Source: an uncultured virus (IMG/VR IMGVR_UViG_2630968701_000003)
Lineage: Duplodnaviria > Heunggongvirae > Uroviricota > Caudoviricetes
Reading direction: 5' to 3' (one strand)
DNA: 20,000 bases
Virus record (IMG/VR): IMGVR_UViG_2630968701_000003
Both the position numbers and the translations under genes were made by a program. Below are positions 2,123-17,421 of the stretch, one piece after another. The first letter of the stretch is position 1, and the number at the start of each line of letters is the position of its first letter. A model generated the notes under the pieces. That model worked only from the letters and a program-made list of their open reading frames with translations. It was not told where the DNA came from and ran no database searches.

Positions 2123-2130
2123 CAAATTTT

Positions 2131-2165
2131 ATGAACTACCCACCACCTAAAGGTATGTGGATACG
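2131..2165. mobile_element. Possible degenerate IS200/IS605-family end (hairpin remnant)
   Basis: ATGAACTACCCACCACCTAAAGGTATGTGG resembles the GAACTACCC-hairpin ends of IS200/IS605-type elements. It is GC-rich relative to its flanks. No transposase is adjacent. Confidence 0.35.
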
Positions 2166-2198
2166 CAGCTGAGAATTTTATAAAAAAGGAGAAAAATT

Positions 2199-3086
2199 GT
2201 GAGAAAAGAATTAGGAAACATTAAAGAGCCTACAGACTTTGAAGGAACGGTAAAGGAATTAGCAGAACAGGTTTTGGATTTATCGACAAAACAGCCAGAT
2301 GGGATGATTCATGATGCAGATACGATTTTAGCAGATATTATGGAAGCAGCAGACTTTCAAGTTAGTGGAATTTCTGATGATATATTAAAATTGTATCTTG
2401 AAGTAGAAAATAAGGACGATTTTGAATCATTATTTTATTTAATTACAGATGAAAAATTTGAAGATTATCTAGTAGAAAGCAAAAAAGTGATGGAAGAAAA
2501 TATTTTGAAAGCAGAACCAAGAGCTATTCAAGTATATCTTTCAGATTCTGGCAATGATGAAAAAGAATCTATCATTTTTAAAACAGATGCTCCCAAAGCA
2601 GTGATCGAGAACTGGATAAAAAGTCAGCATAATTCAATTTCTTCAAATTATCCATTCCACCATATAGTAATGGAATTGTTAAATGAGGGATATATGGTTA
2701 AATTATTATATGATCAATACTCAAAATGTAATGATGTCGAATTGATCGATCAGTATTCTTGCGAAGAAATATATCATGTAGGCTGTAGTATTGGAGATAT
2801 ATTTCATCATATGAAAATTTTTAATAGTTTATATTATGATGCTTCTGGTGTTCCATATATTAAATTAACTGATTCCATGGATGGCAGTGATTTAAGAAAG
2901 ATTGCAAATGTATTAGGAATTTACTCAATAAAAGCAAATGAATTTTGTATTTCTAAAAGGAAAGCATTAATATGCAATCTTGATTTTGTTGATATAATGA
3001 GAATAGCAGAACATGAAAAATACAATGTTGAAACTGGAATAATAAAAAATTCAAATGATGAATGTTATATTCTAACTCGAAAGTAA
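2199..3086 (+). CDS. Hypothetical protein (295 aa, acidic N-half)
   Basis: AAGGAG RBS before GTG start; long ORF. Confidence 0.8.
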   Translation: MRKELGNIKEPTDFEGTVKELAEQVLDLSTKQPDGMIHDADTILADIMEAADFQVSGISDDILKLYLEVENKDDFESLFYLITDEKFEDYLVESKKVMEENILKAEPRAIQVYLSDSGNDEKESIIFKTDAPKAVIENWIKSQHNSISSNYPFHHIVMELLNEGYMVKLLYDQYSKCNDVELIDQYSCEEIYHVGCSIGDIFHHMKIFNSLYYDASGVPYIKLTDSMDGSDLRKIANVLGIYSIKANEFCISKRKALICNLDFVDIMRIAEHEKYNVETGIIKNSNDECYILTRK

Positions 3087-3145
3087 TGCCACCATTATAT
3101 GGAGAAGATTTTGTCTTGAATGAGAATAGCTAGAAATTAATTTTT

Positions 3146-3184
3146 GGAGCAGATACATATTTTATGTGTCTGCTTCTTTTTTTT
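3146..3184 (+). terminator. Intrinsic terminator
   Basis: GGAGCAGATACATA/TATGTGTCTGCTTC stem followed by T8. Confidence 0.8.
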
Positions 3185-3215
3185 GCGACAAAATCTTTAT
3201 AATTTTTTCTGAATA

Positions 3216-3379
3216 TGATATAATACTAATGTATTTTTATTAGACTTTGGAGTTTTAACGGAAAAACTCTGAACTTTTTTTAGGATAAAAAATCAATAGA
3301 AATTTCATAACCAATCATTTGGGCATAAATTTAAGTAGATATTTTGTATCTGCTTCTTTTTATGTCCATTTTTATTTTT
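3216..3379 (+). promoter_or_regulatory. Repeated leader copy 1: extended -10 promoter + structured RNA + terminator-like hairpin
   Basis: TGATATAAT at 3216-3224; 11-bp stem 3246-3273 with AACGGA loop; long hairpin 3320-3368 with T-rich tail; similar to the copies at 8460 and 17208. Confidence 0.75.
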
Positions 3380-3403
3380 ACAAAAGAAAGGAGGAAATAC
3401 AAA

Positions 3404-3637
3404 ATGTGTAAATCAAAATTCACTGATAAAATGTTAATTAGTCTGAAATGCACTCTGATTCAGGAGTGCATGAACAGTGACTATGTTTATTTTGATTTTT
3501 TTGGTGAGAATCGCCCAGATGATGATCAAGAGGATTTATATGCAAAAGTTGAAGAAACTCTTGAACAGATGCCAGAAGAAGAATTGATGAAATTTTATAA
3601 AGAATATGTAAACTCATCAGGAAAGGAGATGAATTAA
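3404..3637 (+). CDS. Small acidic hypothetical protein
   Basis: AAGGAGG RBS, ATG at 3404 (in frame with track ORF 3344). Confidence 0.75.
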   Translation: MCKSKFTDKMLISLKCTLIQECMNSDYVYFDFFGENRPDDDQEDLYAKVEETLEQMPEEELMKFYKEYVNSSGKEMN

Positions 3638-3876
3638 TGAAAGTTTTATTAATTCATACAGACGGATATTCTATTGATGTTGTTGGAAAATACAACACCA
3701 AAGAAGAAGCCTGTAAGCAACTTAATTTTGAATATGAACGAAAGATTGAGTATCAAGAAATGTTTTCAAACGGTATTGATTCGGAATGGATGAAATCATC
3801 ACACTGCGATAATGAAGAAGCTATTCTCTATATTAATGGAGAAGAGGTTCATGTTTGGCAGATTGTAACTGCTTAA
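3637..3876 (+). CDS. Hypothetical protein (79 aa)
   Basis: AAGGAG RBS; TAATG overlap with the upstream stop. Confidence 0.75.
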   Translation: MKVLLIHTDGYSIDVVGKYNTKEEACKQLNFEYERKIEYQEMFSNGIDSEWMKSSHCDNEEAILYINGEEVHVWQIVTA

Positions 3877-3877
3877 T

Positions 3878-3956
3878 TTTGATATATATTATATTAAATA
3901 TGGTACAAAAACAGATGAAAAATTATTATTTGTTTTTGTACTTTTTATATATCAAA
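3878..3956 (+). terminator. Long nested hairpin/terminator resembling the 3' half of the repeated leader
   Basis: GTACAAAAACAGAT/ATTTGTTTTTGTAC stem + T5, enclosed by TTTGATATATA/TATATATCAAA. Confidence 0.55.
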
Positions 3957-4007
3957 GAATTTTATCGTACTGAAATTAAAAAATCATAGGAAAGGCAGGC
4001 AATAAAT

Positions 4008-4484
4008 ATGAGTTTGAATAGTATTAAAAGAGATTTGAAAGATTATATCGAGGAAAATAAAGCATTACTAGAAGCATGGGAAAGAGTTACTTATCTTACG
4101 AAAAAAGATGGAACTCCTTTTAAAAGCATGTCGAAAAATTTTAATAATGCAATATATAAAAGGAAAGAATCTTTTCGAGGATACATTCTTGAAGTTGATA
4201 CAAAGTTTACCCCAAATCATAGAAGATCATATTTTAGAAATTATATCGATTGTGGTAATAAGGATAATCCAAATACTTTGGAAGAAATTAAGCAAAAAGT
4301 ATCAAAAGAAATCGAAAGCAAAAAAAGGTTTATTAAATCATTAGAAAAGCGATTAGAAATAATTGACTATGCTTACGAAGAATTTTCAAAATCTTATGAT
4401 GATATAAGAGAAAATTTGAAAGAGTTATGTGAAAATGACGTTTCTCTGGCAAACATGATTTGTGAAGATATTGCCAAACGATAA
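4008..4484 (+). CDS. Hypothetical protein (158 aa)
   Basis: Purine-rich RBS, long ORF, coiled-coil-like C-terminus. Confidence 0.75.
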   Translation: MSLNSIKRDLKDYIEENKALLEAWERVTYLTKKDGTPFKSMSKNFNNAIYKRKESFRGYILEVDTKFTPNHRRSYFRNYIDCGNKDNPNTLEEIKQKVSKEIESKKRFIKSLEKRLEIIDYAYEEFSKSYDDIRENLKELCENDVSLANMICEDIAKR

Positions 4485-4510
4485 AATTATTGATAAGGAA
4501 GGAATACATT

Positions 4511-4837
4511 ATGAAAAACGAAAAGCAAATTAAAATTGATGGGTATAAGTGCATCAAGCTTGATGAATGGAAGACGGAATGGAAAGCGGAAAAAGTAAAG
4601 TATGTAATTGGAAAAGCAGAAGATGAAGAATTTCCTTCATTCTACGCAAAAGTTCAAAGAGTCAACGATAATGATGATCTTATTGATGATGATTATATCT
4701 TCGAGTATGATCACAAACCAGAGAGATCAGCGGTTGAGGATGATTTCATCGATGAATGGGGTCAAAGAGATTTAGATCGTCGTGAACGAAAAATGCCCGT
4801 ACCGGAAAATGATATTATTCATATGATTTGTATTTAA
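4511..4837 (+). CDS. Hypothetical acidic protein
   Basis: AGGAAGGA RBS before ATG 4511. Confidence 0.75.
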   Translation: MKNEKQIKIDGYKCIKLDEWKTEWKAEKVKYVIGKAEDEEFPSFYAKVQRVNDNDDLIDDDYIFEYDHKPERSAVEDDFIDEWGQRDLDRRERKMPVPENDIIHMICI

Positions 4838-4850
4838 GGAGAAAGAAAGT

Positions 4851-5624
4851 ATGATTAAGAATTGGGAACTAAAAATTAAAGAAAATAAATCAACGCTGAT
4901 CATTAATGATTGGGGTGTAAAATCCGATGATATTATAGATCTAGCAAGACACCTTGTGATTAAATTTCATTTTGATAAATTATATATCAATTATGAAAAT
5001 ACTGGCAAAATCATACATTGTGCGTTAAAAGACAATGATCCAATAAATAAGTGTTTAACGATGAATTGTGGTATGAAAGCTTCAATCATAAAATATCGAT
5101 CACATAATGACATTGATATTCAATTTGAAGATGGTACAATCATTAAGCATCGGGATTTTAGAGATTTTTGTAAAGGAAAAATAGCGAATCCTAATCTGAG
5201 CAAAAGAAAATCATGGGAAGATGTTAGGATTACAAATATTCAATGGGATGCATCCGATGATGTTATGGCAGGATTGCCTGATAAGGTTAATGCTTTAGAT
5301 CTTAATATTAATTTATCTCAGTATGATACAAACGAAGATTTGGATTACAACGAAGATTTCTTATATGGGGTTTCAGAGGCTCTATCAGAAAAATATGGTT
5401 TCTGTCATGATGGTTTCGAGCTTGAAATCAGCATGGGAAAAATGGAGTCAAAAATTGTTGGAATCATCAATCAATTCGGAGAAAATGACTTCTCTTATTG
5501 GACAGGATTCTGTTTGAATGATGAAGAACAGAAACAGATTGAAGAAATTCTTCATCGACACGATACAGAGGGATGCTCTATAAGAGGTACCAGAAGTGAT
5601 ATTTCCAATGAAATAAAAGAATGA
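4851..5624 (+). CDS. Modular hypothetical protein; N-terminal domain similar to that of 12373..13221
   Basis: AAGGAG RBS; several distinct short modules visible (see findings). Confidence 0.75.
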   Translation: MIKNWELKIKENKSTLIINDWGVKSDDIIDLARHLVIKFHFDKLYINYENTGKIIHCALKDNDPINKCLTMNCGMKASIIKYRSHNDIDIQFEDGTIIKHRDFRDFCKGKIANPNLSKRKSWEDVRITNIQWDASDDVMAGLPDKVNALDLNINLSQYDTNEDLDYNEDFLYGVSEALSEKYGFCHDGFELEISMGKMESKIVGIINQFGENDFSYWTGFCLNDEEQKQIEEILHRHDTEGCSIRGTRSDISNEIKE

Positions 5625-5651
5625 TAGTTTTTTAAAATTAGGAGGGAAACA

Positions 5652-5972
5652 ATGATTGAACAAAAAAATGAGTGGTTAGTTGTAGTGTGGAATGATGGCA
5701 TCAGTCAGTTCTTTATTGAACGGCTCACTGCAACAGAAGAAGAGATTAAGAGGTATCTTTTATCGTTAATTGAAGATGATAAAAAATTATCACAAGAAAC
5801 GTGCAATGATTGCACAGACAGTATTGATGGAATTGGAAGCTATGAAGAACCCGTTACAGAAGGTTTTATGGCGTTTCATGCGTATGCTTCTTTTGATACA
5901 TATCATATCGAGTATGAAGCACGTCCATTAAATAAGATTAAAGATGCAACAGAAATGATAGAAGAATTATAA
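5652..5972 (+). CDS. Hypothetical protein (106 aa)
   Basis: AGGAGG RBS; ORF. Confidence 0.75.
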   Translation: MIEQKNEWLVVVWNDGISQFFIERLTATEEEIKRYLLSLIEDDKKLSQETCNDCTDSIDGIGSYEEPVTEGFMAFHAYASFDTYHIEYEARPLNKIKDATEMIEEL

Positions 5973-5993
5973 GAAATTAAAAGGAGAGTAACC

Positions 5994-6251
5994 ATGGTTA
6001 AAATTTTTCAAAAAGAATTACCAGCTGATTGTGAGAAGGCAATAAGAGAACTAATAAAACTAAAAGTATATATTGTTATGGATGATGACAGAATTGAAAA
6101 TTTCTCTGATGTTTGGTGGAAAGTGCAACATGAGTGCGATATGTATGAAGAAAAGCAAGATAGTAACGAGTTGACTTATCAAAGTTACGTTGGTGCCAAA
6201 AACTGGTTAAGTAAATGGGAAAAACTTTATATTAAATACAATGACAAATAA
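5994..6251 (+). CDS. Hypothetical protein (85 aa)
   Basis: AAGGAG RBS; ORF. Confidence 0.75.
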   Translation: MVKIFQKELPADCEKAIRELIKLKVYIVMDDDRIENFSDVWWKVQHECDMYEEKQDSNELTYQSYVGAKNWLSKWEKLYIKYNDK

Positions 6252-6279
6252 AAAATTTGGAGTTGGGAGGTCGATTAAA

Positions 6280-6771
6280 GTGGAAACAAAAGATTTAATC
6301 AAAGAATTAAGAATTTTAGAAAAATCTTCCAAGTTAGGTGAACAGGCGTGTATTTGTGGAGAAGCTGCAAATCGCTTAGAAGAATTACTGCAGGAAATTG
6401 AAATTTCGCGAAGATTAGAAAAAAGTGAGAATCACAAAGAAAATGATGATCGTAAGCAATTACTTTCTAAGAATAAAAAGAAAATGGAAGTAAAGAAAAA
6501 TGTGCTGAAGCCTCTTCAATCATTTTTGAAGTCAGGAAGAAAAATTTATATTACGGGTTTCGACTATGATGAAATGTCTTATGTGTTGGATATTGATGAT
6601 AAATATTTGAATGATTTTGTCGGAGATTACACTGTTTTTGATTTAATGATTTTAGATGCCAATACATATATCGCACAACTCAATTTTTCCTATTTTATTT
6701 TAAGAACATGGAAGAGTAAATATCACTGTAAAGAAGTAAAGTATTCGTTAGAAGAAAAAGGATTGTTATAA
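6280..6771 (+). CDS. Hypothetical protein
   Basis: GGGAGG RBS before in-frame GTG 6280 (track start 6241). Confidence 0.7.
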   Translation: METKDLIKELRILEKSSKLGEQACICGEAANRLEELLQEIEISRRLEKSENHKENDDRKQLLSKNKKKMEVKKNVLKPLQSFLKSGRKIYITGFDYDEMSYVLDIDDKYLNDFVGDYTVFDLMILDANTYIAQLNFSYFILRTWKSKYHCKEVKYSLEEKGLL

Positions 6772-6806
6772 AGATTCAAAGCAAAAAATAACAGGAGGAA
6801 AAAATC

Positions 6807-7244
6807 ATGAAGATTAATAAAAAAGAGCTTATCGTTGGAAATACGGCTTATGTTGTAACAAAGAAATACGATCCAAATCAAACAAAGCAGGTATATCACA
6901 TTGATCCGGTTGAAATTAAAAAAATTGGTCGTAAATATATTACGGTTACCGTACAATACTGGGATCAGGAATTTTGCTTAAAAGATGACGGAGTCATTTA
7001 CGAATTTGCTTTAAAAAATAAAACAAGCGGAGCAAATGATGTATTGTGTTTGTCTGAAGAAGATGCGAAAAAGCATATCTTAAAACAAAATCTTTTGATG
7101 GAATTTCGAAATAAGAGATTCTATGAAAATGACTGCAATCTGGATCAATTGCTACTTATGAAAGCAGGATATCATTACGATCCAACAGGTCCAATGGCAG
7201 AACATTGGCAGAAGATTTTGGAATATGAGAAAGGTAATTATTAA
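6807..7244 (+). CDS. Hypothetical protein with phage-type beta-rich N-terminal segment (IKKIGRKYITV)
   Basis: AGGAGG RBS; ORF. Confidence 0.75.
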   Translation: MKINKKELIVGNTAYVVTKKYDPNQTKQVYHIDPVEIKKIGRKYITVTVQYWDQEFCLKDDGVIYEFALKNKTSGANDVLCLSEEDAKKHILKQNLLMEFRNKRFYENDCNLDQLLLMKAGYHYDPTGPMAEHWQKILEYEKGNY

Positions 7245-7249
7245 TTGTT

Positions 7250-7285
7250 ATGCAGGACAGGGAAACTTCCTTGTCCTGTATTGTT
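7250..7285 (+). terminator. Stable hairpin with weak U-tract (terminator or processing site)
   Basis: ATGCAGGACAGGGA/TCCTTGTCCTGTAT 14-bp stem. Confidence 0.5.
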
Positions 7286-7304
7286 AAAAAGAAAGGAAAA
7301 TCAA

Positions 7305-7652
7305 ATGAAAAGAAACGACAAGATATACAATTTAAGAGGATTTTGTAACGTGCAAGATGACTGTTCGAAATGCAGATTAGATGCATTAACAGACAATTGT
7401 GACTTCGATGAACTGCCAGATAAAAAGATCGATCAATTATACAAGATCGTTGAAAAGATAATCCATAAAGGCACAGAAGAGCTCACAGGTGTCGTAAAAG
7501 ATGTCAACAAAGGGGCCAAAACAGTAACAAGTATTCTGGAAGAAATCAAAAAAGAAATGTGCGATGAATATTGCGTGCATGCAAAATTAACACCAAATTT
7601 TCAAAAGGAAGCAGAAGAAGCATGTAACAGATGTCCACTAAATAAATTGTAA
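7305..7652 (+). CDS. Cys-rich hypothetical protein
   Basis: GAAAGGA RBS before ATG 7305; CxxC-type motifs near both ends (CSKC, CNRCPL). Confidence 0.7.
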   Translation: MKRNDKIYNLRGFCNVQDDCSKCRLDALTDNCDFDELPDKKIDQLYKIVEKIIHKGTEELTGVVKDVNKGAKTVTSILEEIKKEMCDEYCVHAKLTPNFQKEAEEACNRCPLNKL

Positions 7653-7664
7653 AAGGAGAAAATC

Positions 7665-7927
7665 ATGAATATCAAACTGATCACAGAAAAATTAAAATCA
7701 CCCGAATATGACTTTTTGAAAACGACATTCTTAAATGTGGAAGTTGTACAGTTGTTCATTGGAACGAGAAGTATGCATCTTGGACACTTACAAGAAAAGG
7801 TTGGGTATATGATCACTTTTTTGGAGAAGCAGAAGATCCAGAAGATTGTATAGTTGTAGGAAATATTTTTGACAATCCACAGTTGAAAAAGAAGTATGGT
7901 AAAGATTGGGAGGAAGAACACAAATGA
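7665..7927 (+). pseudogene. Out-of-frame chimera: nucleotidyltransferase-like N-terminus joined to a YopX-family C-terminal half
   Basis: First frame reads MNIKLITEKLKSPEYDFLKT. The -1 frame from 7715 reads FENDILKCG...DCIVVGNIFDNPQL...* (YopX motifs) and ends at 7927 in an ATGA overlap with the next gene. Confidence 0.7.
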
Positions 7928-8457
7928 TCAAGACAAGATATAAAATACAGGAATATTTTTCAAAAGAAACAAAAATCCATTGCAACAGAGTAGAACAATA
8001 CACGAAAGCAATGGCAGAAGAATTAGGGCTGTCTGCATACGACACAAAGATGTTAACGGTTGCAGCAAGATATCATGATATTGGGAAATATTACATTCCA
8101 GAAAAGATTCTGAATGCACCAAGACCATTAACAGGATTGGAACGTAAAGTCATTGATATGCACGCATACTATGGATATGAAGCTTGCATGGAATATGGGT
8201 TTGAAAAAGATATTTGTGAATTAATATTACTGCATCATGGTACACACAAATATCGTACGCTGACAGATGAACAGATCAGCGATTTTGCAAAAGAATATTT
8301 TCAAATCTTAATGGCAGCTGATATTTATGATGCATTGATAAGTGACAGGGTGTATCGTAGAGCAGTTGATCATGATCGAGCATTGGATATCGTTGCAGAA
8401 AATCCAGAGATTAAGCGATGGGTGTTTCTTGCATTAGAAAAAATTTCACTATGTTAG
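7924..8457 (+). CDS. Stand-alone HD-GYP-like phosphohydrolase
   Basis: GGAGG RBS; HCNRV, YHDIGK, LLHH and ADIYDALISDRVYR motifs; the GYP motif itself is absent. Confidence 0.85.
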   Translation: MIKTRYKIQEYFSKETKIHCNRVEQYTKAMAEELGLSAYDTKMLTVAARYHDIGKYYIPEKILNAPRPLTGLERKVIDMHAYYGYEACMEYGFEKDICELILLHHGTHKYRTLTDEQISDFAKEYFQILMAADIYDALISDRVYRRAVDHDRALDIVAENPEIKRWVFLALEKISLC

Positions 8458-8459
8458 GG

Positions 8460-8629
8460 TTGAGATACTGCTCACAACATGATATAATAAAATTGTATTT
8501 TTATCAGACTTTAGAATATAGGAAAATTCTGAACATTTTTAAGAATCAAGTCAATAGAAAATTATCAATCATGGGTATAAATTAAGCAGATATATGGTAT
8601 CTGTTTATTTTTATACCCTTTTTTATTTT
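8460..8629 (+). promoter_or_regulatory. Repeated leader copy 2: sigma-A promoter + structured RNA + terminator-like hairpin
   Basis: TTGAGA(8460)-17 bp-TATAAT(8483) with TG extension; stem 8510-8533 with ATAGGAAA loop; hairpin 8573-8618 + T6. Confidence 0.8.
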
Positions 8630-8675
8630 AAGGAAAGGAGATTTAAAAAATATATTAAATTGAAAAAAATCATTG

Positions 8676-8701
8676 AAACAGACAAAAAGTCTGTTTTTTT
8701 T
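8676..8701 (+). terminator. Second terminator-like hairpin upstream of yhaM
   Basis: AAACAGAC/GTCTGTTT with T run. Confidence 0.55.
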
Positions 8702-8721
8702 ATTTACGAAAGGAGATTTTT

Positions 8722-9669
8722 ATGTTTAAAGAAGCAACAATTCAAGGAAAGATTTCAGGTCCAGTGATGATCGTATCTGTTACACAGAAACAGACCAGAA
8801 CTTCAAAACCCTATTTGATCTTAAAATTAAGAGATGATCAGAAGAAAGAGGTAGATGCCAAGTTATGGAATATGTCAGTTGAAGAATTTCCATTTGATAA
8901 GAATACTGTGATCATCGGTGAATTTTCTGTTGGAGAATACAACGGGCAGAAAGATTTTACACTGGATATGTACAGAGAAGCTTTGGAATCTGAGTACAGA
9001 ATGGAAGATTTCATCAATGCAGCACCTTACAGTCCGCAAAAAATGTATGAGTATATCTTACAGATTGCAGATCAAACAGTACTTGATGATGTTTATCTTG
9101 CTATCATTCATAATATTTATGAGAAGTACAAAGAACAGATTTTTATCTGGTCTGCTGCCAAAGCAGTACATCATAACATTCGATCTGGATTTTTGTATCA
9201 TACATTCCGTATGGTTCAGAGTGGAATTGCACTTGGAAAGGTGTATGGGCAAGCCTTAAATCACAGTTTATTGTTAACCGGCATTATCTTACATGATGTT
9301 GGAAAGTTAAAAGAATTATATACAGATCCTACAGGAAATGCCGATTATACTCCGGAAGGAAGTTTGCTTGGACATTTACTGATTGGATGTGAAATGATCG
9401 ATGAAGCTTGCAATAAATTAGATCTTCAAAATGATGAGAATAAAGATAAGATTTTACTTTTAAAACACTTATTAGCATCTCATCACGGCAAGCAGGAGTA
9501 CGGAGCAATTACAGTTCCACAGCTGCCGGAGGCTATCATGTTAAATCGAATTGATATGATCGATGCGGAAATGTATCAATGTGAACATGCATTAGAAGAT
9601 CAGAGCAACGGAACATTCACGGACCGTATTTTCGGGTTAAACAACACCCGCTTATACAAACCACTCTAA
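8722..9669 (+). CDS. yhaM: YhaM/Cbf1-family 3'-5' exonuclease (OB fold + HD domain)
   Basis: N-terminal KPYLILKLRD...AKLW (OB fold); AAKAVHH...GFLYHT, LHDVGK, GSLLGH, ASHHG..EYG and PEA..L..ID.IDA motifs. Confidence 0.88.
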   Translation: MFKEATIQGKISGPVMIVSVTQKQTRTSKPYLILKLRDDQKKEVDAKLWNMSVEEFPFDKNTVIIGEFSVGEYNGQKDFTLDMYREALESEYRMEDFINAAPYSPQKMYEYILQIADQTVLDDVYLAIIHNIYEKYKEQIFIWSAAKAVHHNIRSGFLYHTFRMVQSGIALGKVYGQALNHSLLLTGIILHDVGKLKELYTDPTGNADYTPEGSLLGHLLIGCEMIDEACNKLDLQNDENKDKILLLKHLLASHHGKQEYGAITVPQLPEAIMLNRIDMIDAEMYQCEHALEDQSNGTFTDRIFGLNNTRLYKPL

Positions 9670-9690
9670 TTTTGGAAAGGAGTCGTATTT

Positions 9691-10203
9691 ATGCAGTATA
9701 TTTTACACAACAAAGGATGCGGAAATGTTTATTATGTGCAAATCACTGCTGGTGGCAGTCTGAAAAAAGTCAGAGAACGTTCATTGGCAACGATTTTTCA
9801 ATCACAAAGTGAAGCAGATAATATCAAGCATAAATACAAGAAAAAACTGAAAACTTACAAATTGGAACCGATTACTGTACAAAATATAGAACCAGTAAAA
9901 ACGGCAGAACAGGAATGTAAAAGAAAATCTGTTTCTAAAACATTGCGGACACAAGTGTACAACTTAGCAGAAGGACATTGTGCTATTTGCGGTGATTTTG
10001 TTCCATATGAAGATTTTACAGTTGATCATATTTTTCCAGTCTCAAAAGGCGGAAAAAATGAACTGTCTAATCTGCAGTGTACATGTAAATCATGTAATAC
10101 AATGAAACAGAATATGAGCGAAAAAGAATTCCAGTATAAAATCGGAAAGATATTTTTGAGACAAACAATCAAAAGAATCAAGGATAGAAAGAAGGAAAAG
10201 TAA
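9691..10203 (+). CDS. HNH endonuclease
   Basis: CAICG...VDHIFPVSKGGKNELSNLQCTCKSCNTMK. Confidence 0.9.
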   Translation: MQYILHNKGCGNVYYVQITAGGSLKKVRERSLATIFQSQSEADNIKHKYKKKLKTYKLEPITVQNIEPVKTAEQECKRKSVSKTLRTQVYNLAEGHCAICGDFVPYEDFTVDHIFPVSKGGKNELSNLQCTCKSCNTMKQNMSEKEFQYKIGKIFLRQTIKRIKDRKKEK

Positions 10204-10204
10204 A

Positions 10205-10420
10205 TTGAAGAAGAAAATAAATCATAAAGACATGATCGAAGCATGGAATTACGATTCTGGCGTCTTCAAAGGACAATCTATCGGCATTCATAATTCAGCT
10301 ACTGGAGAAATCGACAAGCTGTTATCAGTGGAATGTTTTCATGGAGGAGAAGAAGTAAAACGAATTGTAATTAATAAAGAAGCTACAAAGAAACATGGCT
10401 TTACAATTATCATTGATTAA
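10205..10420 (+). CDS. Small hypothetical protein
   Basis: TTG start right after the HNH stop, AAGGA RBS; fills the gap between genes. Confidence 0.55.
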   Translation: MKKKINHKDMIEAWNYDSGVFKGQSIGIHNSATGEIDKLLSVECFHGGEEVKRIVINKEATKKHGFTIIID

Positions 10421-10437
10421 ATTTAATGGAGGAAGCT

Positions 10438-10674
10438 ATGAGAAAAGCAGAATTCGAACAGAAATATTTAGGGGAAAAAGTTCAAATCGAGTTATTTGAT
10501 GGAGATATCTTAACAGGATTCCTACAAAAAACTGGAGCTGAAAGATTTAGAAATAATCCGGATCTTTATTTGCGTAGAGGTTTTTATTGTTTGACAGAAA
10601 CTTTAGAATCACAGGATTGTGTGAATTTCTTAATCTTTCGATTTTCACATGTTCAAAAGATAAAATTTGTATAA
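10438..10674 (+). CDS. Small protein, possible Sm/LSm-like fold
   Basis: GGAGG RBS; YLGEKVQIELFDGDILTGFL resembles the Sm1 motif and LIFRFSHVQKI resembles Sm2. Fold call is tentative. Confidence 0.55.
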   Translation: MRKAEFEQKYLGEKVQIELFDGDILTGFLQKTGAERFRNNPDLYLRRGFYCLTETLESQDCVNFLIFRFSHVQKIKFV

Positions 10675-10693
10675 AGAAAGGAGTAATATAACT

Positions 10694-11128
10694 ATGGCAC
10701 AGGTAGCAGAATCTAATACAATCATCATTCAAACAAATTTTAGATTGTTATATTTTGCGATGGAAAACATTAAGGATTCAGAGCAGCATGATATCAATTA
10801 CTGGAATCGCTTACAGACAATCATGTATGCTGAAATTGATAAGAATGCGATGTATAATAAAGAATTCTTAAAACGCAATATGACACAGATGATGATGTTT
10901 TATTGTAAAGAGGTTAAGGATATAAATAGAGATTTCTATGATGAAGTTTGCAGACCAATTTACAATATTGTAAAAGAAAATGCAGATGATAATGATCCTA
11001 TGGCTTATTATGAAGAAAGCTTTGGAAAATTAAATGAACTTTATCGTAAAGTAGATGGATACAGTTATTATACGAAGTCTATTTTAGCAGTGACAGATCT
11101 TTTAGAGCAGTTAAAATGGGTGGAGTAG
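10694..11128 (+). CDS. Hypothetical helical protein
   Basis: AAGGAG RBS before ATG 10694. Confidence 0.75.
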   Translation: MAQVAESNTIIIQTNFRLLYFAMENIKDSEQHDINYWNRLQTIMYAEIDKNAMYNKEFLKRNMTQMMMFYCKEVKDINRDFYDEVCRPIYNIVKENADDNDPMAYYEESFGKLNELYRKVDGYSYYTKSILAVTDLLEQLKWVE

Positions 11129-11149
11129 TTAACAAATATTATAAATATT

Positions 11150-11233
11150 AGAAAGGAGGCTCGCCAAATGGCGAGGGCGGAATTATTTTCAACAATTAAT
11201 GTAGGAATAAAAATTTCGCTTATTTATGAATGA
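11150..11233 (+). promoter_or_regulatory. Structured leader (SD + two hairpins) containing a 21-codon uORF 11168-11233 coupled to the adenylyltransferase gene
   Basis: AGAAAGGAGG; CTCGCC/GGCGAG hairpin; GCGGAATT/AATTTCGC hairpin; uORF TGA overlaps ATG 11230. Confidence 0.5.
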
Positions 11234-11793
11234 AACCTTATGACGTAGGATTAGTGTGTGGACGATTCCAGACCTTCCATAAAGGTCATGAAAAATTAGT
11301 TGATACTGGTCTGTTACTGTGTGATCGATTACTGATTCTAATCGGCTCTGCACAGGAATCTGGAACTGAACGTAATCCGTTCAATATCAATACACGGACC
11401 AAAATCCTAAGAGAGATTTATGGAGATCGTCCAGAGATTATGATCTATGCACTTTCGGACATGACGGACGAAAATGATATTTGTCCTGAATGGGGACGTT
11501 ATCTGTTAAACAATGTAGACAGATACATCTACAAGAATCCCGAGCTGATGATTTATGGCAACGATGAAAGCCGAAGCGGTTGGTTTGACAAAAAAGATCT
11601 TGCAAACACAGCTGAATTAATCGTTAACAGACAGGATTTACCAATCAGTGCAACTATGGTGAGAGAAGCAATGGCAAAAGATGATCGAAAAAAATGGATG
11701 AGTCTAGTAAACCCACGTTTACATAAAATGTATGATGTATTACGTGCGGAACTTATGAGCGTACCGTTTTATCAGGAGCTAAGTAAAAATTAG
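11230..11793 (+). CDS. NadM-type nicotinamide-nucleotide adenylyltransferase (HxGH cytidyltransferase family)
   Basis: GRFQTFHKGH, IGSAQES..ERNPF and ISATMVR motifs. Confidence 0.85.
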   Translation: MKPYDVGLVCGRFQTFHKGHEKLVDTGLLLCDRLLILIGSAQESGTERNPFNINTRTKILREIYGDRPEIMIYALSDMTDENDICPEWGRYLLNNVDRYIYKNPELMIYGNDESRSGWFDKKDLANTAELIVNRQDLPISATMVREAMAKDDRKKWMSLVNPRLHKMYDVLRAELMSVPFYQELSKN

Positions 11794-11841
11794 CTAAAAA
11801 GAAGTCAAAAAATTAGTTATAAAGAAAAGGAGAAAGAAACA

Positions 11842-12285
11842 ATGAATAAAGCAATTTTAATGGGAAGATTAACAAGAGATCCAGATGTAAGATACTCACA
11901 GGGAGAAAATCCTATGGCAATCGCACGATACACATTAGCGGTAGACAGACGATTCAAAAGAGATGGTGAGCAGAGTGCAGATTTTATTAACTGTTTAGCG
12001 TTTGGAAGATCAGCAGAATTTGCAGAGAAGTATTTCAAACAGGGTACAAAGATTGCTGTTTCCGGAAGAATCCAGACAGGAAGTTATACAAACCGTGAGG
12101 GTGTGAAAGTTTACACAACAGAAGTTGTGATCGAAGAACAGGAATTTGCAGAGAGCAAAGCAGCTGCATCCCAGAACAATAATAGGGGAGCTTCACAGCC
12201 AAGCACACCTCAGCCAAGTACGGCAGCAAGCGATGGTTTTATGAACATCCCTGATGGACTGGAGGATGAACTCCCATTTAATTAA
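11842..12285 (+). CDS. ssb: Single-stranded DNA-binding protein
   Basis: MNKAILMGRLTRDP...ADFINC...GRIQTGSY, acidic DELPF tail. Confidence 0.97.
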   Translation: MNKAILMGRLTRDPDVRYSQGENPMAIARYTLAVDRRFKRDGEQSADFINCLAFGRSAEFAEKYFKQGTKIAVSGRIQTGSYTNREGVKVYTTEVVIEEQEFAESKAAASQNNNRGASQPSTPQPSTAASDGFMNIPDGLEDELPFN

Positions 12286-12308
12286 GAAAGAACGTAGAAT
12301 CATTATTG

Positions 12309-12353
12309 ATCCAGTATATTCAGACAGATTGTCGGATATACTGGATTTTTTTT
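12309..12353 (+). terminator. Intrinsic terminator after ssb
   Basis: ATCCAGTATATTC/GGATATACTGGAT stem + T run. Confidence 0.85.
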
Positions 12354-12372
12354 AAGAAAGGAAGAGGTTAAA

Positions 12373-13221
12373 ATGCAAAATAAAAATAATATAAAAAATT
12401 GGAAGATTGAAATAACAAACGAAGGAGCTAAATTATTCATTACAGAAGGAGCCGTAATGGCTAGAGACGTTTTAAATCTTGCAAGAGAACAGGCTATAAA
12501 ATATAACTTATCAAACTTGAAGATTTATACGGTTTATATGCGTGATGGATATTATTATGATTATACTTTTGAAGATGATATGCTATATTTCATACATATG
12601 ACTGAAAAGATTGAAAATGAAGATATTTCTTATTTGATGAAACGGGCTGCAGAAAAGTTATCAACTCTAAAATTAGACGATCGTATATGGAGCGTTAATT
12701 TTTCTATTGATAATCTTCCAAGAGAGAAAAATGGAGATCTATATGCTGCCTGTGCTATGGTCATTCATTTTTATGATAGAAATGATGATTATGAAATTGA
12801 TTCACAACGGTTTTATTTTAATTTATCGTCAGGACAATGGGAATCTATTAAAAATGTAAAGAATAAGTCTATATCATGCAAAAATTCATTGGCCTGCAAA
12901 ATTGGAGATAACTATTTTATGATTCAGAAATCAGAAGATGGTTACGATTATACACTTTATACTTCTGATTATTCAGAAATTGATGGAGGACAGCTTGATA
13001 ATCCGGATATTTCTATTTATGATGCAATGAATGAAATCTTAGAAGATCTGGATATTGAGATTCCAGGTCATAAAGATGAAATTGATTATGAAGAATTAGA
13101 AGAAAAAGTTGAAAATGCAGAAAATGAACGTATCAACAAAATATTATCAAATCATGGTTGTACAGTGATTGCTCAATCAGATTGTCATACTGATTTTCTT
13201 ATAAAATCAGGAGAAAATTAG
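12373..13221 (+). CDS. Modular protein with C-terminal LPD16-like (large polyvalent protein-associated) domain
   Basis: IQKSEDGYDYTLY..DYSEIDGGQLDNPDISIYDAMNEIL matches the LPD16 pattern as recalled. Confidence 0.7.
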   Translation: MQNKNNIKNWKIEITNEGAKLFITEGAVMARDVLNLAREQAIKYNLSNLKIYTVYMRDGYYYDYTFEDDMLYFIHMTEKIENEDISYLMKRAAEKLSTLKLDDRIWSVNFSIDNLPREKNGDLYAACAMVIHFYDRNDDYEIDSQRFYFNLSSGQWESIKNVKNKSISCKNSLACKIGDNYFMIQKSEDGYDYTLYTSDYSEIDGGQLDNPDISIYDAMNEILEDLDIEIPGHKDEIDYEELEEKVENAENERINKILSNHGCTVIAQSDCHTDFLIKSGEN

Positions 13222-13249
13222 AATTTTGAAAGAATATTAAGAAATAACT

Positions 13250-13286
13250 AAAAGCGGTGTGAGTATAAATCTCATACCGCTTTTTT
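13250..13286 (+). terminator. Intrinsic (possibly bidirectional) terminator
   Basis: AAAAGCGGTGTGAG/CTCATACCGCTTTTTT. Confidence 0.85.
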
Positions 13287-13304
13287 ACTAAAGGAGAAAA
13301 ACAC

Positions 13305-14123
13305 ATGGAAGAAAAGGAAATAAAAATTGCAGAAAGATTCAACATACTTGATAAATGTCAAAAGTTAGAGAAAGATTTTTTACAGCTTAGTAGAATAACA
13401 AAAGTAGAATTTGATCTAAACGGACTATATGACAATATTTATCAGGTTATTATATTAGTAAAATATGAGATTCCAATGGAATTAGGTCCAAAGAAATATT
13501 TTAGAATCAGAACAAATATTTTGAAAAAAGTTTTGGAAATTGCACAAAACAACCAATTAATTCGAACAGACGATTCGATAGAAGATTATGGAGAGTATTT
13601 TTACATTGTATTTGATTGTTCTAGTTGGAAATATCAGATACAAAGATATACAGAACTTTTCAAAAATGTTTATGGTCCTGAAATTGAAAATCCTAAAGAC
13701 GGGATGGAAAAGGAACGTGAAGTAATTAAGACTTTGATCAAAGAGGGACTTGGAATGCTTAATAAAGCGAGATCACAAGCTCTTTTTCTTGACGATATAG
13801 AGATGCAAGAGGATATTACAAATGCTTTGAATATTTTTCTGGCAGCAGAAGAAAAACAACAGAAGATTTCTCCGGAAAAAAATCTTTTTGAAGATTATAC
13901 AGATGAGGAATTATTGATTTTTTATGATTGCCTTAAAAAAGCTGATTTTTATGTGATTCCTGAATTAAGCAAGATTGCTTCAAAATATGTTTCTAGCAAA
14001 CGCTGCTATTTAGATTTGATTTTCGAGTTGTCTAAACGATGGTATCAAGAGAAACAGAAGAAATACAAAGAAGAAAATGGAAAATTTCATCAGTGGTTAG
14101 AGGGAGAAGATCCATTAATTTAA
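13305..14123 (+). CDS. Hypothetical protein (272 aa)
   Basis: AAGGAG RBS; long ORF. Confidence 0.8.
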   Translation: MEEKEIKIAERFNILDKCQKLEKDFLQLSRITKVEFDLNGLYDNIYQVIILVKYEIPMELGPKKYFRIRTNILKKVLEIAQNNQLIRTDDSIEDYGEYFYIVFDCSSWKYQIQRYTELFKNVYGPEIENPKDGMEKEREVIKTLIKEGLGMLNKARSQALFLDDIEMQEDITNALNIFLAAEEKQQKISPEKNLFEDYTDEELLIFYDCLKKADFYVIPELSKIASKYVSSKRCYLDLIFELSKRWYQEKQKKYKEENGKFHQWLEGEDPLI

Positions 14124-14186
14124 AAGATTAGTGATTGATTAAAGCCTCTAAGCTAAATTGAAGATATTATTAAGGAGAAAGAAATC

Positions 14187-14999
14187 ATGTTAGTAGAAGT
14201 TACATATGCTTGTAAAATGGGATGTACGCATTGTTTATCAGACTGCAAACCGGATGGAGAACATATGACACTGGAAGTATTTGAAGATGTATTAAAATTT
14301 ATGATCAAAAATCAGATTCCAACGTGGAGTTTTTCAGGTGGAGAAATGTTTGAACATCCAGATATTTTGAAGATGCTGTCACTTATCGAATCATATTGGA
14401 AGACATTACCGATTAAGTATCCAATCACATTTGCAACAAATGGTCGTGAACTTGTTCGTAACAAAAAAATTTATCATGCAGTTTCAAAGTTCTTGAAACA
14501 CTGTGGAAAACGATATGTTATGATCCAGGTGACAGATGATCCGAGATTTTATCCCGATCCATTAACAGATAATGAAAAATATTGGTTATCTAAGTTAGGA
14601 GTTATTATTGATACGGTGCCTTCGGATCAAAACAATAAATCTCACTGTTTGTATCCACAAGGACGTGCTTTGAAGAATTATTCCGATGAATATTGGAATA
14701 CGATTGCACCTAAATGTATCAATTGCATTTTGATTACAAAGCAGAAACCAGAAGCAACATTGAAGGATTTGGTCAATATACTTTTATCTAATGGCAAGGT
14801 TTGTACACCAGTTATTGCACCAGATGGAAGTATTAAGATTGGTGAGTCGGCACTTTGTCCTAAAATTGCATCTATTTACGATTCTGTTCCGGAAATTATG
14901 GAAAAGATTCGTAATGCAAGATGTCGTGCGTGTAAAATTCCATGGGAAAAATTAAAAGAAACAAATCCAATCGCATATTTATTATGTGAAAATTTTTGA
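14187..14999 (+). CDS. Radical SAM protein with additional C-terminal cysteines
   Basis: CKMGCTHC (CxxxCxxC), FSGGEMF and FATNG motifs; later CINC, C, C, CRAC. Confidence 0.88.
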   Translation: MLVEVTYACKMGCTHCLSDCKPDGEHMTLEVFEDVLKFMIKNQIPTWSFSGGEMFEHPDILKMLSLIESYWKTLPIKYPITFATNGRELVRNKKIYHAVSKFLKHCGKRYVMIQVTDDPRFYPDPLTDNEKYWLSKLGVIIDTVPSDQNNKSHCLYPQGRALKNYSDEYWNTIAPKCINCILITKQKPEATLKDLVNILLSNGKVCTPVIAPDGSIKIGESALCPKIASIYDSVPEIMEKIRNARCRACKIPWEKLKETNPIAYLLCENF

Positions 15000-15001
15000 T
15001 A

Positions 15002-15075
15002 AGAAAGGAGGCTTACTCTACAGTGGGGCAAAAGAGGCTTAGACGATAAGTCTCTTTTGTTTATTTACACATGAA
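15002..15075 (+). promoter_or_regulatory. SD + two hairpins (second is terminator-like); same layout as 11150-11233
   Basis: AGAAAGGAGGCT...GGGC, then CAAAAGAGGCTTA/TAAGTCTCTTTTG, then TTATTTA..ATGAA. Confidence 0.5.
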
Positions 15076-15278
15076 TCAAAATGGAGTAAAAAAATAAGAA
15101 AACAAATCGAATAGATAGAGCAATAATGTTATGTTCTATCTACGATGTTATAAAAGATGGTAATAAATGTATTGCAGTAGATCTTGAAGGGAATGAATTT
15201 GCTGAGTTAAATAATTGTCATGCAAATGATAAAACTAAGGAATATTAACTGCAATATAGATAAATTGAGGAGAAAGTT

Positions 15279-16232
15279 ATGAACAGAAAAATTAAAAAAA
15301 TAGAAGATGTAGTAACAATGCCAATAACAAAATATGTTACAACGGATGGAAAAAAATTTACGGATGATTATGATGCAAATATGCATCAAGCACATTTAGA
15401 TTCAATGGACAAAGCAAAGTTATGTTTTAAAAAATATGGAATTTATACCAGTGATCCAATGATTAAGAATCATAAAAATAATGATCAAATTATTAGCAAT
15501 GATTATCTTCTTACTCGCATCTTACATACAGATATATCAAGTAATGATGATCTGTATATCTTACAGGCAAAAGATGAGAAATCTGAAAAAGAAATTCTGA
15601 AAACATTTCGTGATTACTTGAATACTGATGTTATGGATCGTCGTTTTTTTAATGTGGCAAATAATTATATATTTCCCCATACAATCATCTTTTGTAGAGA
15701 TTCCATTTATGGAAATTATAATGCTTTGTGTGCAGAAAGGGAATTTGAGCTTATTGAAAATGCTTTAAAATTTGGAAGACAAGTCTTAAATATGGCAGAC
15801 AAAAAAGAAGATAATATCGTATCTGATGAAGCGAAAGAAAAAAATATGATTAATAAAAGAGAGTTGGCAGCAAGATTAAAACAGGGAGAATGTCTTGAAG
15901 AAATTTTTGATTTTACTGATGGTCAGGAATGTTTGATTTATAAAGGAGATTTTGAAGTATCCGATAATATTATTTATATTCCTGATATTTATCTTAATAA
16001 ATTGAACCTTGGAGTCGTAGCGACAGGGGAAAATTTGAATGATATTTTGAAAAATTGCTATACAGGAAATGATTTCTTGAAGGCATGCAATGGATACAAA
16101 AACATTGCCAAAGCCTTATTTGATTTTGTTGATTGGCAGCATCCAAACATCCAAGATCTCACTGATTGTTATGATGAAGAAGAATTTTACAATGAATTTG
16201 GAATTCATTTTGATGATTTAGGTAATGATTAG
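15279..16232 (+). CDS. Two-module hypothetical protein
   Basis: GAGGAG RBS; C-terminal module with YIPD...YTGNDFL...LFDFVDWQHP. Confidence 0.8.
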   Translation: MNRKIKKIEDVVTMPITKYVTTDGKKFTDDYDANMHQAHLDSMDKAKLCFKKYGIYTSDPMIKNHKNNDQIISNDYLLTRILHTDISSNDDLYILQAKDEKSEKEILKTFRDYLNTDVMDRRFFNVANNYIFPHTIIFCRDSIYGNYNALCAEREFELIENALKFGRQVLNMADKKEDNIVSDEAKEKNMINKRELAARLKQGECLEEIFDFTDGQECLIYKGDFEVSDNIIYIPDIYLNKLNLGVVATGENLNDILKNCYTGNDFLKACNGYKNIAKALFDFVDWQHPNIQDLTDCYDEEEFYNEFGIHFDDLGND

Positions 16233-16306
16233 CCATTGAGATGTATAACAAAGTATTGAAGTTGAAATCAGAGAAATTTATATTATATAAGAAAGGAAGA
16301 ATACTA

Positions 16307-17107
16307 ATGAATCATAATCGTAATGCCCATTATTGGGAAAATAGAGACGAAAGAAAAGAAAGAGCTTATCTCCATACAAAAAATATGGCTTATGTTTTTT
16401 CAGATCATATTGAACAATGTGTTCGAAATACAAAATTATATGATGATACAAATACATTTGATGAATTAAATCCAGTATTGACAAGAGAAGTTTCCGTTGT
16501 TGATCTGGATACGGTGTCTGCAATATTTCGTTACAAAAGGAAAGAAAAAAGGACGGCAATTCTTAACTTTGCCAGCTATAAAAATGCCGGCGGAATGTTT
16601 TTACAAGGTAGCAGTGCTCAGGAAGAAAGTTTATGCCATGCATCGTTTTTATACAATGTATTATCTGAATTCAAAGACTATTACGCTTGGAATGATAAGC
16701 ACAAGAATCGTGCATTATATGAAAATCGAGCATTGTATTCTCCTGATGTTGTATTTACAAATGATAGTGTAGGGACACTTTGTGATGTAATTACATGTGC
16801 TGCACCAAACAAATCGGCAGCACAGAAATATTGTCATGTATCAGATGAAGAAAACTATAATGCATTAGAGTCAAGAATTCGTTTTGTCTTACATATTGCA
16901 GAAAAAGAAAAAGTAGACACGCTTATTTTGGGTGCTTACGGAGCGGGAGTTTTTGGTCAGGATGCAACAGAAGTTGCACAGATTTTCAAAAGACTTTTGA
17001 TTGAAGAATTTTGGACTTTTGAAAAAATCATCTTTGCGATCCCAGATTGCTCAAGGAATAAAAATTATAAGAAATTTTTGGATGTAATGTCCGATACGAT
17101 TATGTAA
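16307..17107 (+). CDS. Bacterial PARG-type macrodomain protein (TIGR02452/DUF2263; ADP-ribose glycohydrolase)
   Basis: LNFAS.KNAGG.FLQGSSAQEESLC catalytic loop, LYSPDV, ITCAAP, LILGAYGAGVFG; GAAAGGA RBS before ATG 16307. Confidence 0.9.
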   Translation: MNHNRNAHYWENRDERKERAYLHTKNMAYVFSDHIEQCVRNTKLYDDTNTFDELNPVLTREVSVVDLDTVSAIFRYKRKEKRTAILNFASYKNAGGMFLQGSSAQEESLCHASFLYNVLSEFKDYYAWNDKHKNRALYENRALYSPDVVFTNDSVGTLCDVITCAAPNKSAAQKYCHVSDEENYNALESRIRFVLHIAEKEKVDTLILGAYGAGVFGQDATEVAQIFKRLLIEEFWTFEKIIFAIPDCSRNKNYKKFLDVMSDTIM

Positions 17108-17152
17108 GAATGGAAAACGCCTTATAAAAGGCCAAAATTATTTAAATAATGG

Positions 17153-17193
17153 AAAGGGAGTTGCACATTTTTGTGCAGCTCTTTTTTTGTTTT
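17153..17193 (+). terminator. Intrinsic terminator
   Basis: GGGAGTTGCACA/TGTGCAGCTCTT stem + T run. Confidence 0.85.
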
Positions 17194-17207
17194 CTGAAAG
17201 CTTAAAA

Positions 17208-17370
17208 TGTGTTATAATGTAATTAATTTATTAGATTCCAAAACAACAGGGATAGTTTGGACTTTTTTAAGGAATAAAGTTTTAGAGAAATTATGTATTA
17301 CAATTCAATATTTTTGATATAGAAGCATAGATTAAGCAGACGAATGGTCTGTTTTTTTTATGCTTTTATT
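17208..17370 (+). promoter_or_regulatory. Repeated leader copy 3 (most diverged)
   Basis: TGTGTTATAAT at 17208-17218; TTAGATT, stem 17237-17261 with AACAGGGATA loop, ACTTTTTTAAGGAAT; hairpin about 17319-17369 with the AAGCAGA/TCTGTT core. Confidence 0.65.
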
Positions 17371-17421
17371 TATATATATACCTGTTAATAATCAGTCGAT
17401 CAGAGAGGAGGTGACAATGAT

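Follow-up and report, generated by a model that had tools for sequence, protein, structure and literature searches.

Repeated promoter-leader-terminator cassettes in DNA filed as an uncultured virus: a candidate antitermination gate

Why should one structured noncoding segment stand, several times over, in front of unrelated gene blocks of a single element? The question is raised by a 20,000-nucleotide (nt) stretch of DNA filed as an uncultured virus (IMG/VR record IMGVR_UViG_2630968701_000003). This stretch, termed the window, comprises bases 54507 to 74506 of a 74.5-kb contig. An original prediction, made from the window alone, described three intergenic cassettes in which a promoter is followed by a small hairpin and a terminator-like hairpin, and proposed that each makes a short RNA that ends there unless a trans factor allows read-through. 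Sequence comparison indicates that the cassettes are a real RNA leader family that is absent from Rfam. The reading favored here, held with about as much doubt as conviction, is that the cassette acts as a default-off, element-wide gate, which processive antitermination, loading by way of the 5′ RNA, would open.

Three copies and their paralogues

The three cassettes were found where they had been described, with their parts in a common order. They share pairwise identities of 79%, 57% and 66%, and profiles built from any two copies recovered the third (E = 3.5e-5, 1e-12 and 1.1e-13). The TG of the extended −10 element TGnTATAAT stands at 3216, 8480 and 17210 and is followed by TTTATYAGAYT (3236 to 3246, 8500 to 8510 and 17227 to 17237), a variable hairpin (P2) and a long hairpin (about 3320 to 3368, 8573 to 8618 and 17323 to 17365) belonging to a nested terminator (T2). 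A complete cassette spans about 170 bp at a GC content of 0.20 to 0.28 (about 24%) and consists of a sigma-A-type extended −10 promoter, an irregular 5′ hairpin of about 55 to 60 nt, a U-run, an A-rich linker and T2. Its parts in the window are as follows, with z giving the folding of the long hairpin relative to shuffled sequence and RBS denoting the ribosome binding site.

3216 to 3224, plus strand: copy 1 extended −10 promoter, TGnTATAAT; start predicted near G3231 from spacing
3231 to 3290, plus strand: copy 1 5′ RNA module, with conserved UUUUUAUYAGAY, covarying P2 (3246 to 3273), conserved C(U/A)UUUUU, and WAGA
3320 to 3379, plus strand: copy 1 nested terminator T2 (z = −7.9); inner hairpin and U-rich run inside an outer stem with its own U tail
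3388 to 3394, plus strand: copy 1 RBS, with ATG at 3404
8460 to 8488, plus strand: copy 2 promoter, TTGAGA, 17 nt, TG-N-TATAAT; 11 of 12 consensus matches
8495 to 8548, plus strand: copy 2 5′ RNA module, with P2 at 8510 to 8533
8573 to 8629, plus strand: copy 2 nested terminator T2 (z = −6.1)
17210 to 17218, plus strand: copy 3 extended −10 promoter
17225 to 17275, plus strand: copy 3 5′ RNA module, with P2 at 17237 to 17261; lacks the 5′ TGTA present in most copies
17323 to 17372, plus strand: copy 3 nested terminator T2 (z = −8.4), preceding a lipoprotein-like gene and a glucosaminidase/amidase gene

The expectation of further copies in the replicon and its relatives was borne out. A profile of the three copies found six full copies in the window's contig, all on the plus strand, as are the genes. 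A sister record of 221,898 bases (G001), whose match to the window's contig is 89 to 99.8% and covers most of its length, has 17 full copies in the region from 69 to 178 kb. Sixteen of them are on the main gene strand and one is divergent, and each is co-oriented with the genes that it heads; one partial match lacks both promoter and 5′ module.

The stems covary, as had been proposed. Across P2 and T2 of 15 aligned G001 paralogues, 97.0% of 268 cells were paired, and 9 of 18 pairs had changed on both sides. Slid controls were 38 to 60% paired and none of 500 shuffles scored as high, a count that is not a probability because the paralogues are related to one another. Among 255 cells there were 28 G-U and no A-C wobbles on the sense strand, which favors folding of sense-strand RNA over a fold of the template DNA strand. 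The same wobbles count against a template-strand promoter of the Frpo/ssi type. Such a single-stranded DNA promoter on the transferred strand would have a precedent in the repeated structured units 5′ of establishment-type genes in F and ColIb-P9 (PMC8708921), but it is very improbable here, as the template strand would fold poorly, the double-stranded promoter already approaches consensus, and the −10 box is not consistently paired among six copies.

Structure of the 5′ RNA module

In contrast to the long hairpins, the 5′ halves of the three window copies alone fold no better than shuffled sequences (z = −1.0, −0.8 and +0.6), and the structure of this half therefore rests on comparison. The predicted RNA runs from a GUA start through UUUUUAUYAGAY, P2 and C(U/A)UUUUU to WAGA. 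P2 always opens with U and closes with A and is otherwise free to vary. Counted outward from P2, successive positions are paired in 0, 13, 16, 16, 0, 0, 13, 6, 15, 15, 15 and 14 of 16 copies, and the segment just 3′ of the U-run keeps a fixed pairing register with the 5′ T-rich segment, in 13 to 16 of 16 copies at most positions. A plausible fold for the module is thus a single, irregular hairpin interrupted by a pyrimidine mismatch and a 2×2 internal loop. The multi-branch fold suggested earlier, closed by TAGA(G)AAA, was not recovered: that part (AAYAGAA) is not a consistent partner of the 5′ T-rich segment, and the segment after the U-run pairs there instead. In 12 of 16 copies, P2 is followed by a TTNTTT word at a distance that matches published hairpin-stimulated NusG pauses (PMC11602163).

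The hairpin loop had been said always to contain GGA, the recognition feature of CsrA/RsmA. This did not hold, as 5 of 16 paralogues have no GGA inside the hairpin, and GGA lies in or beside the predicted apical loop in 3 of 12 copies. A csrA gene was found in none of three element records, a search that covered the element records and not the host. CsrA/RsmA-binding RNAs have several conserved GGA motifs in hairpin loops; this description of the cassette is accordingly not supported, with GGA missing from P2 in those five copies and at most one candidate loop per RNA. The same observations count against the idea that short terminated RNAs are themselves the product, as paralogous small RNAs serving as protein decoys (CsrA-like or other) or as antitoxins. 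A promoter and a strong terminator in each unit would yield RNAs of about 140 nt, and an AG-containing loop is common, but in most copies an RBS follows T2 by about 10 to 20 nt with no second promoter. This product role is improbable, and independent small RNAs, the alternative offered by the original prediction, are less likely because nearly every copy lies directly before an RBS.

Promoters

All 17 full copies of G001 carry an extended −10 element (TG-N-TAWHHT). No −35 element or operator is shared upstream among 16 aligned promoters, except that in many copies the U-tract of a preceding terminator occupies this region; a terminator ending the previous operon (T0 type) lies within about 100 nt upstream of the promoter in 10 of 16 paralogues. 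The main strand of G001 has 36 promoter-like sites outside long open reading frames (ORFs), and the module follows 16 of them. Promoter-plus-terminator units without a 5′ module lie at G001 170158 to 170027 (before a topoisomerase gene), at 102106 to 101657 (before an S1-domain gene, with two terminators) and at 46496 (in the conjugation region).

Control could instead act at initiation, as in EGeRS2, with TTTTTATYAGAYT serving as a DNA operator for an element-encoded repressor and a burst of expression following in a new host, the terminators only cutting leak. The motif does lie at about +4 to +16 of strong promoters, as does operator 2 of Reg576 (PMC6294495), and the element encodes helix-turn-helix (HTH)-like proteins, one of them a lead scoring below 0.9. 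The motif is, however, neither a closely spaced repeat nor a palindrome, its look-alike word sits on the far side of a variable-length stem with RNA covariation, the promoters have no conserved upstream site, and derepressed transcription would still end at T2. Initiation control of this kind therefore seems quite remote.

Distribution and identity of the element

A first, loose pattern gave mostly chance matches in viral contigs (5 of 122 loci were real). A stricter pattern matched 118 stretches in viral contigs and at least 138 in metagenomes; among the stretches listed, 254 matches of usable length formed 17 clusters, 15 resembling the paralogues and two chance singletons. Many copies per record were found in viral records of about 200 kb. 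No full copy was present among the at least 120 stretches listed from a GTDB pattern scan (best E = 0.0014), a result that does not bear on absence, and blastn of copy 1 against plasmids and phages gave no match. A structure model (R2) found none in 151 sampled genomes of one Lachnospiraceae-labelled family, in a weak search that scored 18 candidates per genome, and none in 22 Lachnospiraceae genomes with a related VirB4; a sequence model (R1) found none in five records. As far as tested, the cassette family thus appears confined to the lineage of this element.

No known RNA family was recognized, in agreement with the earlier description. In the window, Rfam 15 gave five matches at chance level (E up to 5), none of them near its gathering score, and it gave no match to the leader copies in seven G001 stretches. 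No description of the motif appeared in the literature searched. A catalogue of viral structured RNAs (PMC10690425) was compared by its table only and not by sequence; 22 of its 31 Anaerostipes-linked rows were seen, and part of the cassette motif may already be an unnamed candidate there.

The gene content of G001 includes VirB4, VirD4, VirB6-like proteins, sortases and pilins. Replication and recombination are represented by DnaX, DnaN, HolA, UvrD, RecD, a topoisomerase, YqaJ and ERF recombinases and two SSBs, and other genes encode an Alp7A-like actin, ArdA, RadC, LPD1, LPD16, LPD24, an SLOG protein, a macro/PARG protein and PRTRC-type products. Neither capsid nor terminase families were detected among the G001 proteins scanned (most, but not all, of 248 called ORFs), and Pfam and NCBIfam recognized no relaxase among the element proteins. 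A tyrosine integrase lies at one end of two further records (G002 and G003), in G003 adjoining chromosomal-looking genes. The element, about 205 kb long and filed as a virus, is therefore read as an integrative conjugative element (ICE). Its host is most likely Anaerostipes hadrus, a common bacterium of the human gut, as the threonyl-tRNA synthetase flanking G001 and the DnaN of the element cluster with proteins of that name. The element is common in human gut assemblies, where cluster members were counted on as many as 1000 contigs or more.

Termination by default and read-through

T2 reaches −18 kcal/mol or stronger in 14 of 16 copies, up to −27 kcal/mol, and is nested: its inner hairpin is followed by six to eight U in 9 nt in all 16 copies, this run also belongs to the 3′ arm of the outer stem, and the outer stem has a U tail of its own. 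It stands 23 to 35 nt 5′ of most start codons, with the RBS directly after it. Upstream segments pair with the 5′ arm of T2 no better than shuffled sequences do (z = −1.2 to +1.8, 16 of 16 copies), and truncated transcripts of 12 copies have no shared alternative pairing. Without an upstream antiterminator helix, the leader does not resemble a classical attenuator or riboswitch platform, and its default would be termination; opening of the gate would need something other than an alternative fold.

Strong hairpins with U-tails also occur inside operons, 15 to 38 nt 5′ of a start codon and with no extended −10 site between; those at 12308 and 13252 are the two clear cases in the window. The terminator-like features of the window outside the cassettes are listed below.

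3146 to 3185, plus strand: T0 at the end of the preceding operon; stem of 14 pairs with a T tail, the U-tract lying just 5′ of the copy 1 promoter
3902 to 3950, plus strand: internal terminator-like hairpin in the copy 1 operon, 65 nt 5′ of the next ATG
8675 to 8704, plus strand: second terminator-like hairpin after copy 2 (hairpin at 8675 to 8697), with an ACAGAC/GTCTGT core as in T2
12308 to 12353, plus strand: internal terminator-like hairpin after ssb, about 25 nt 5′ of the ATG of the LPD16 gene; G001 orthologue, −21.0 kcal/mol
13252 to 13288, plus strand: internal terminator-like hairpin 22 nt 5′ of the ATG at 13305, with no promoter-like site
17156 to 17189, plus strand: T0 before copy 3

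The second hairpin of copy 2 sits between the cassette and its first gene (at 8722), directly 5′ of the RBS of this OB-HD (YhaM-like) gene. The distance of about 25 nt leaves no room for a promoter between the hairpin at 12308 to 12353 and the LPD16 gene, and at the G001 orthologue of the hairpin at 13252 to 13288 (−18.8 kcal/mol) the best extended −10 score is −11.4. Window positions 5625 to 5640 retain only the 3′ arm of the hairpin found at the matching G001 junction (146828, −24 kcal/mol), and internal terminators can therefore be lost between sister elements.

Within the leader zone of G001, 8 of 92 junctions without a leader have a hairpin of −10 kcal/mol or stronger no more than 45 nt before the next ATG, compared with 6 of 562 in other Lachnospiraceae DNA, namely stretches near VirB4 from six related genomes (Fisher P = 1.7e-4). 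Two of the leader-zone hairpins (G001 89398 and 74067) resemble T2 but have neither promoter nor 5′ module. As evidence for read-through, this enrichment is moderate.

The antitermination gate would work as follows. Each promoter would by default yield an RNA of about 130 to 170 nt and stop, keeping operons of replication, recombination and anti-defense type off. The conserved base of the 5′ hairpin, displayed while the polymerase pauses at the U-run, may be a loading site, which is the weakest step of the scheme. RNA polymerase loaded there would become resistant to terminators, as it does with nut, put, conAn2 or canT. This would probably require a conditional factor, present after excision or transfer, and the polymerase would pass T2 and then the promoterless terminators farther inside the operons. 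Among the genes behind the leaders are core genes of replication and recombination, whose expression must occur at some time. It is the lack of an alternative fold, the internal terminators and the pause-like spacing together that favor a loading site.

Several observations weigh against this scheme. T2 has 16 to 23 predicted pairs in 15 of 16 copies, longer than the limit for conAn, whose antitermination is resisted by stems of 14 to 15 bp or more, even imperfect ones (PMC10325885). A NusG paralogue was found in none of three element records and no antiterminator factor was identified; no convincing small basic N-like peptide follows a leader in G001. The layout fits the earlier proposal of termination relieved by a trans factor, and neither such a factor nor an antiterminator helix was found. 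The pairs below P2 are invariant, so the fold there is not proven by covariation, and P2 with the U-run could equally be a weak terminator. Units with promoter and terminator alone exist on the element, and known RNA antiterminators occur once or twice per element, compared with 17 cassettes here. Nor is the junction enrichment specific to the leader zone: the leader-free conjugation region shows the same rate (4 of 44), although this region could have an antiterminator of its own, as pLS20 and Tn916 do, and none of 25 junctions in the cargo zone at 178 to 209 kb carries such a hairpin (P = 0.2). In addition, GC content is higher in the control DNA (40 to 49% versus 33%), and one of the eight hairpins (G001 170086) is preceded, about 70 nt upstream, by a promoter of its own.

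Because T2 is longer than the stems that resist conAn, two explanations without polymerase modification stay alive. An element-encoded RNA-binding protein or trans RNA might act at each terminator, on the conserved arm of T2 (RCAGAY/RUCUGY) or on YAGA words, a route that would have no limit on stem length. It would account for the conservation of T2 sequence beyond the needs of a plain terminator, for the CAGAY/RTCTG core shared with many other terminators of the element and for the units without a 5′ module, and the element encodes an S1-domain protein and ProQ-C-like proteins as candidates. Such terminator-by-terminator control is nevertheless unlikely: the internal terminators at G001 162061, 139327 and 128845 lack the core, which may in any case be shared by duplication, the S1 gene also occurs in related elements without this leader, and the conserved 5′ module would be left unexplained.

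The second explanation invokes no switch. The 5′ hairpin, which begins at the predicted +1, would protect the RNA end, the long hairpins would be leaky terminators or RNase III processing or stabilizing sites that set steady levels, and the cassette would have been duplicated as an expression module. T2, a long stem with an internal loop beside an RBS, is reminiscent of phage RNase III sites, a likeness that counts in favor, as do the terminator-before-gene junctions of the leader-free region; among the papers listed by a literature search, none tests this role. Two U-tracts and up to −27 kcal/mol in T2 suggest little leak, however, and a stabilizer needs no invariant bases around a freely varying stem, so that constitutive expression of this kind also has a low probability.

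Comparison with known systems

Phage lambda nut/N and qut/Q likewise place a short structured RNA after a promoter, followed by a pause and terminators. In HK022 putL and putR, too, a short structured RNA directly follows the promoter and precedes a pause and terminators, and a weak −10-like word occurs early in the transcript (NANNAT at +23 to +28 in putL; YAGAYT at +8 to +19 here) (PMC9378689). The put RNA has two stems and is factor free, whereas the stem of the cassette is single, irregular and variable at its tip, a conditional factor is presumed, and no sequence similarity to put is shown.

Gram-positive conjugative elements have established cis-acting antiterminator RNAs of their own, conAn2 of pLS20 (PMC8191782) and canT of Tn916 (PMC11658703). 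The mark of processive RNA antiterminators such as put, canT and conAn2 is orientation-specific read-through, in cis, of heterologous terminators. The proposed logic is the same, in that a cis-acting nascent RNA lets the polymerase pass terminators inside conjugative-element operons. These RNAs are 260 to 600 nt long, single, and serve the conjugation operon (PMC8191782, PMC10325885, PMC11658703), and conAn2 follows the conAn1 gene and fails on long stems (PMC8191782, PMC10325885). Unlike conAn, the module here is about 60 nt, lies directly after the promoter, is repeated, has no adjacent protein gene, heads operons other than conjugation operons and faces a long-stem terminator.

The resemblance to the pLS20 family that had been suggested is sustained in outline, since here, as with EGeRS1 and EGeRS2, a Gram-positive conjugative element has repeated units directly 5′ of an RBS at the head of several variable operons, antirestriction genes among them. 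It fails in the defining features, and membership in EGeRS1, EGeRS2 or conAn was rejected on those tested. EGeRS1 of pLS20 is 420 to 750 bp and GC rich, has no constitutive sigma-A promoter and blocks read-through by a mechanism stated as unknown (PMC8708921); the short, AT-rich cassette joins an extended −10 promoter, present in every copy, to a structured leader and terminator. EGeRS2 of p576 has a strong promoter controlled by Reg576 bound to dual TTATCCC motifs upstream of the −35 element (PMC6294495, PMC8708921), and no conserved site occupies that region in the 16 aligned promoters, although Reg576 itself was not searched for. EGeRS units occur four to five times, compared with 17 cassettes here.

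Distant relatives with another leader

VirB4, VirD4, YqaJ, RecD, a primase-like gene and Alp7A of the element have counterparts at about 30 to 40% identity in two plasmids, OY725878 from Subdoligranulum and NZ_AP023417 from Vescimonas; further elements encode a YqaJ that is 50 to 87% identical. In both plasmids and in 5 of 15 inspected genome loci (G140, G353, G205, G235 and G284), the yqaJ operon begins with a promoter, followed by a conserved structured leader that differs in sequence and by one or two long terminators; the other 10 loci have yqaJ within an operon. The second leader family has two copies each in both plasmids, G205, G140 and G284, with weaker matches in G305; neither leader family detects the other, and the second had no Rfam match at E = 0.1. 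As distant relatives carry a different leader and terminator at the orthologous operon, the layout at the yqaJ-recD operon is older than the leader sequence, which does not imply homology of the two RNAs. The second family, predicted to be a multibranch RNA, was observed at L746:520-860, L764 and L792 to L796, with second copies in W01, W02, G205, G140 and G284; a short basic ORF comes after the copy that precedes yqaJ.

A wider proposal is possible but doubtful: a compact promoter-proximal RNA antiterminator used 17 times would form one regulon, would overcome the long stems that resist conAn and would be switched by an element-encoded or host factor, related elements having placed unrelated RNAs at the same position. 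How replication and anti-defense genes are briefly switched on after transfer is largely an open question in Firmicutes conjugative elements. The 17 natural variants of one cassette, with invariant and free positions already sorted, make the question directly testable and, if the proposal is true, a portable antiterminator of 60 nt would be a useful genetic tool for Lachnospiraceae.

Other genes, repeats and RNAs of the element

The element carries secA and secY (L276:1345-4946) alongside DnaX, DnaN and HolA, an unusual cargo for an ICE. A gene for a 356-amino-acid protein (L270:11317-12387, plus strand) runs against the grain and is divergent from one leader; with HTH-like leads below 0.9 and few relatives (17), it is a candidate regulator or replication protein. 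A DUF3800-I RNA (RF02969, 84.6 bits; L269:8929-9045, plus strand) lies immediately 5′ of the single divergent leader copy, which is on the opposite strand, in a back-to-back arrangement with the beginning of the conjugation region.

Mini-CRISPR-like repeats occur at about 1200 to 17100 of G000:C1 and in L275 and L276 (G001, 190 to 207 kb), together with nine matches above the gathering score to RAGATH-30 (RF03055) in G001. Guides from these arrays were rejected as regulators of the leaders, as 6 array regions and 16 cassettes share no exact match longer than 12 nt, the longest being AT rich. Genes behind leaders in the window include those for a nucleotidyltransferase (11230 to 11793), a microbial PARG/macro protein (16241 to 17107) and an HD-domain protein (7906 to 8457), for which a role in counter-defense against NAD- or nucleotide-based immunity is possible.

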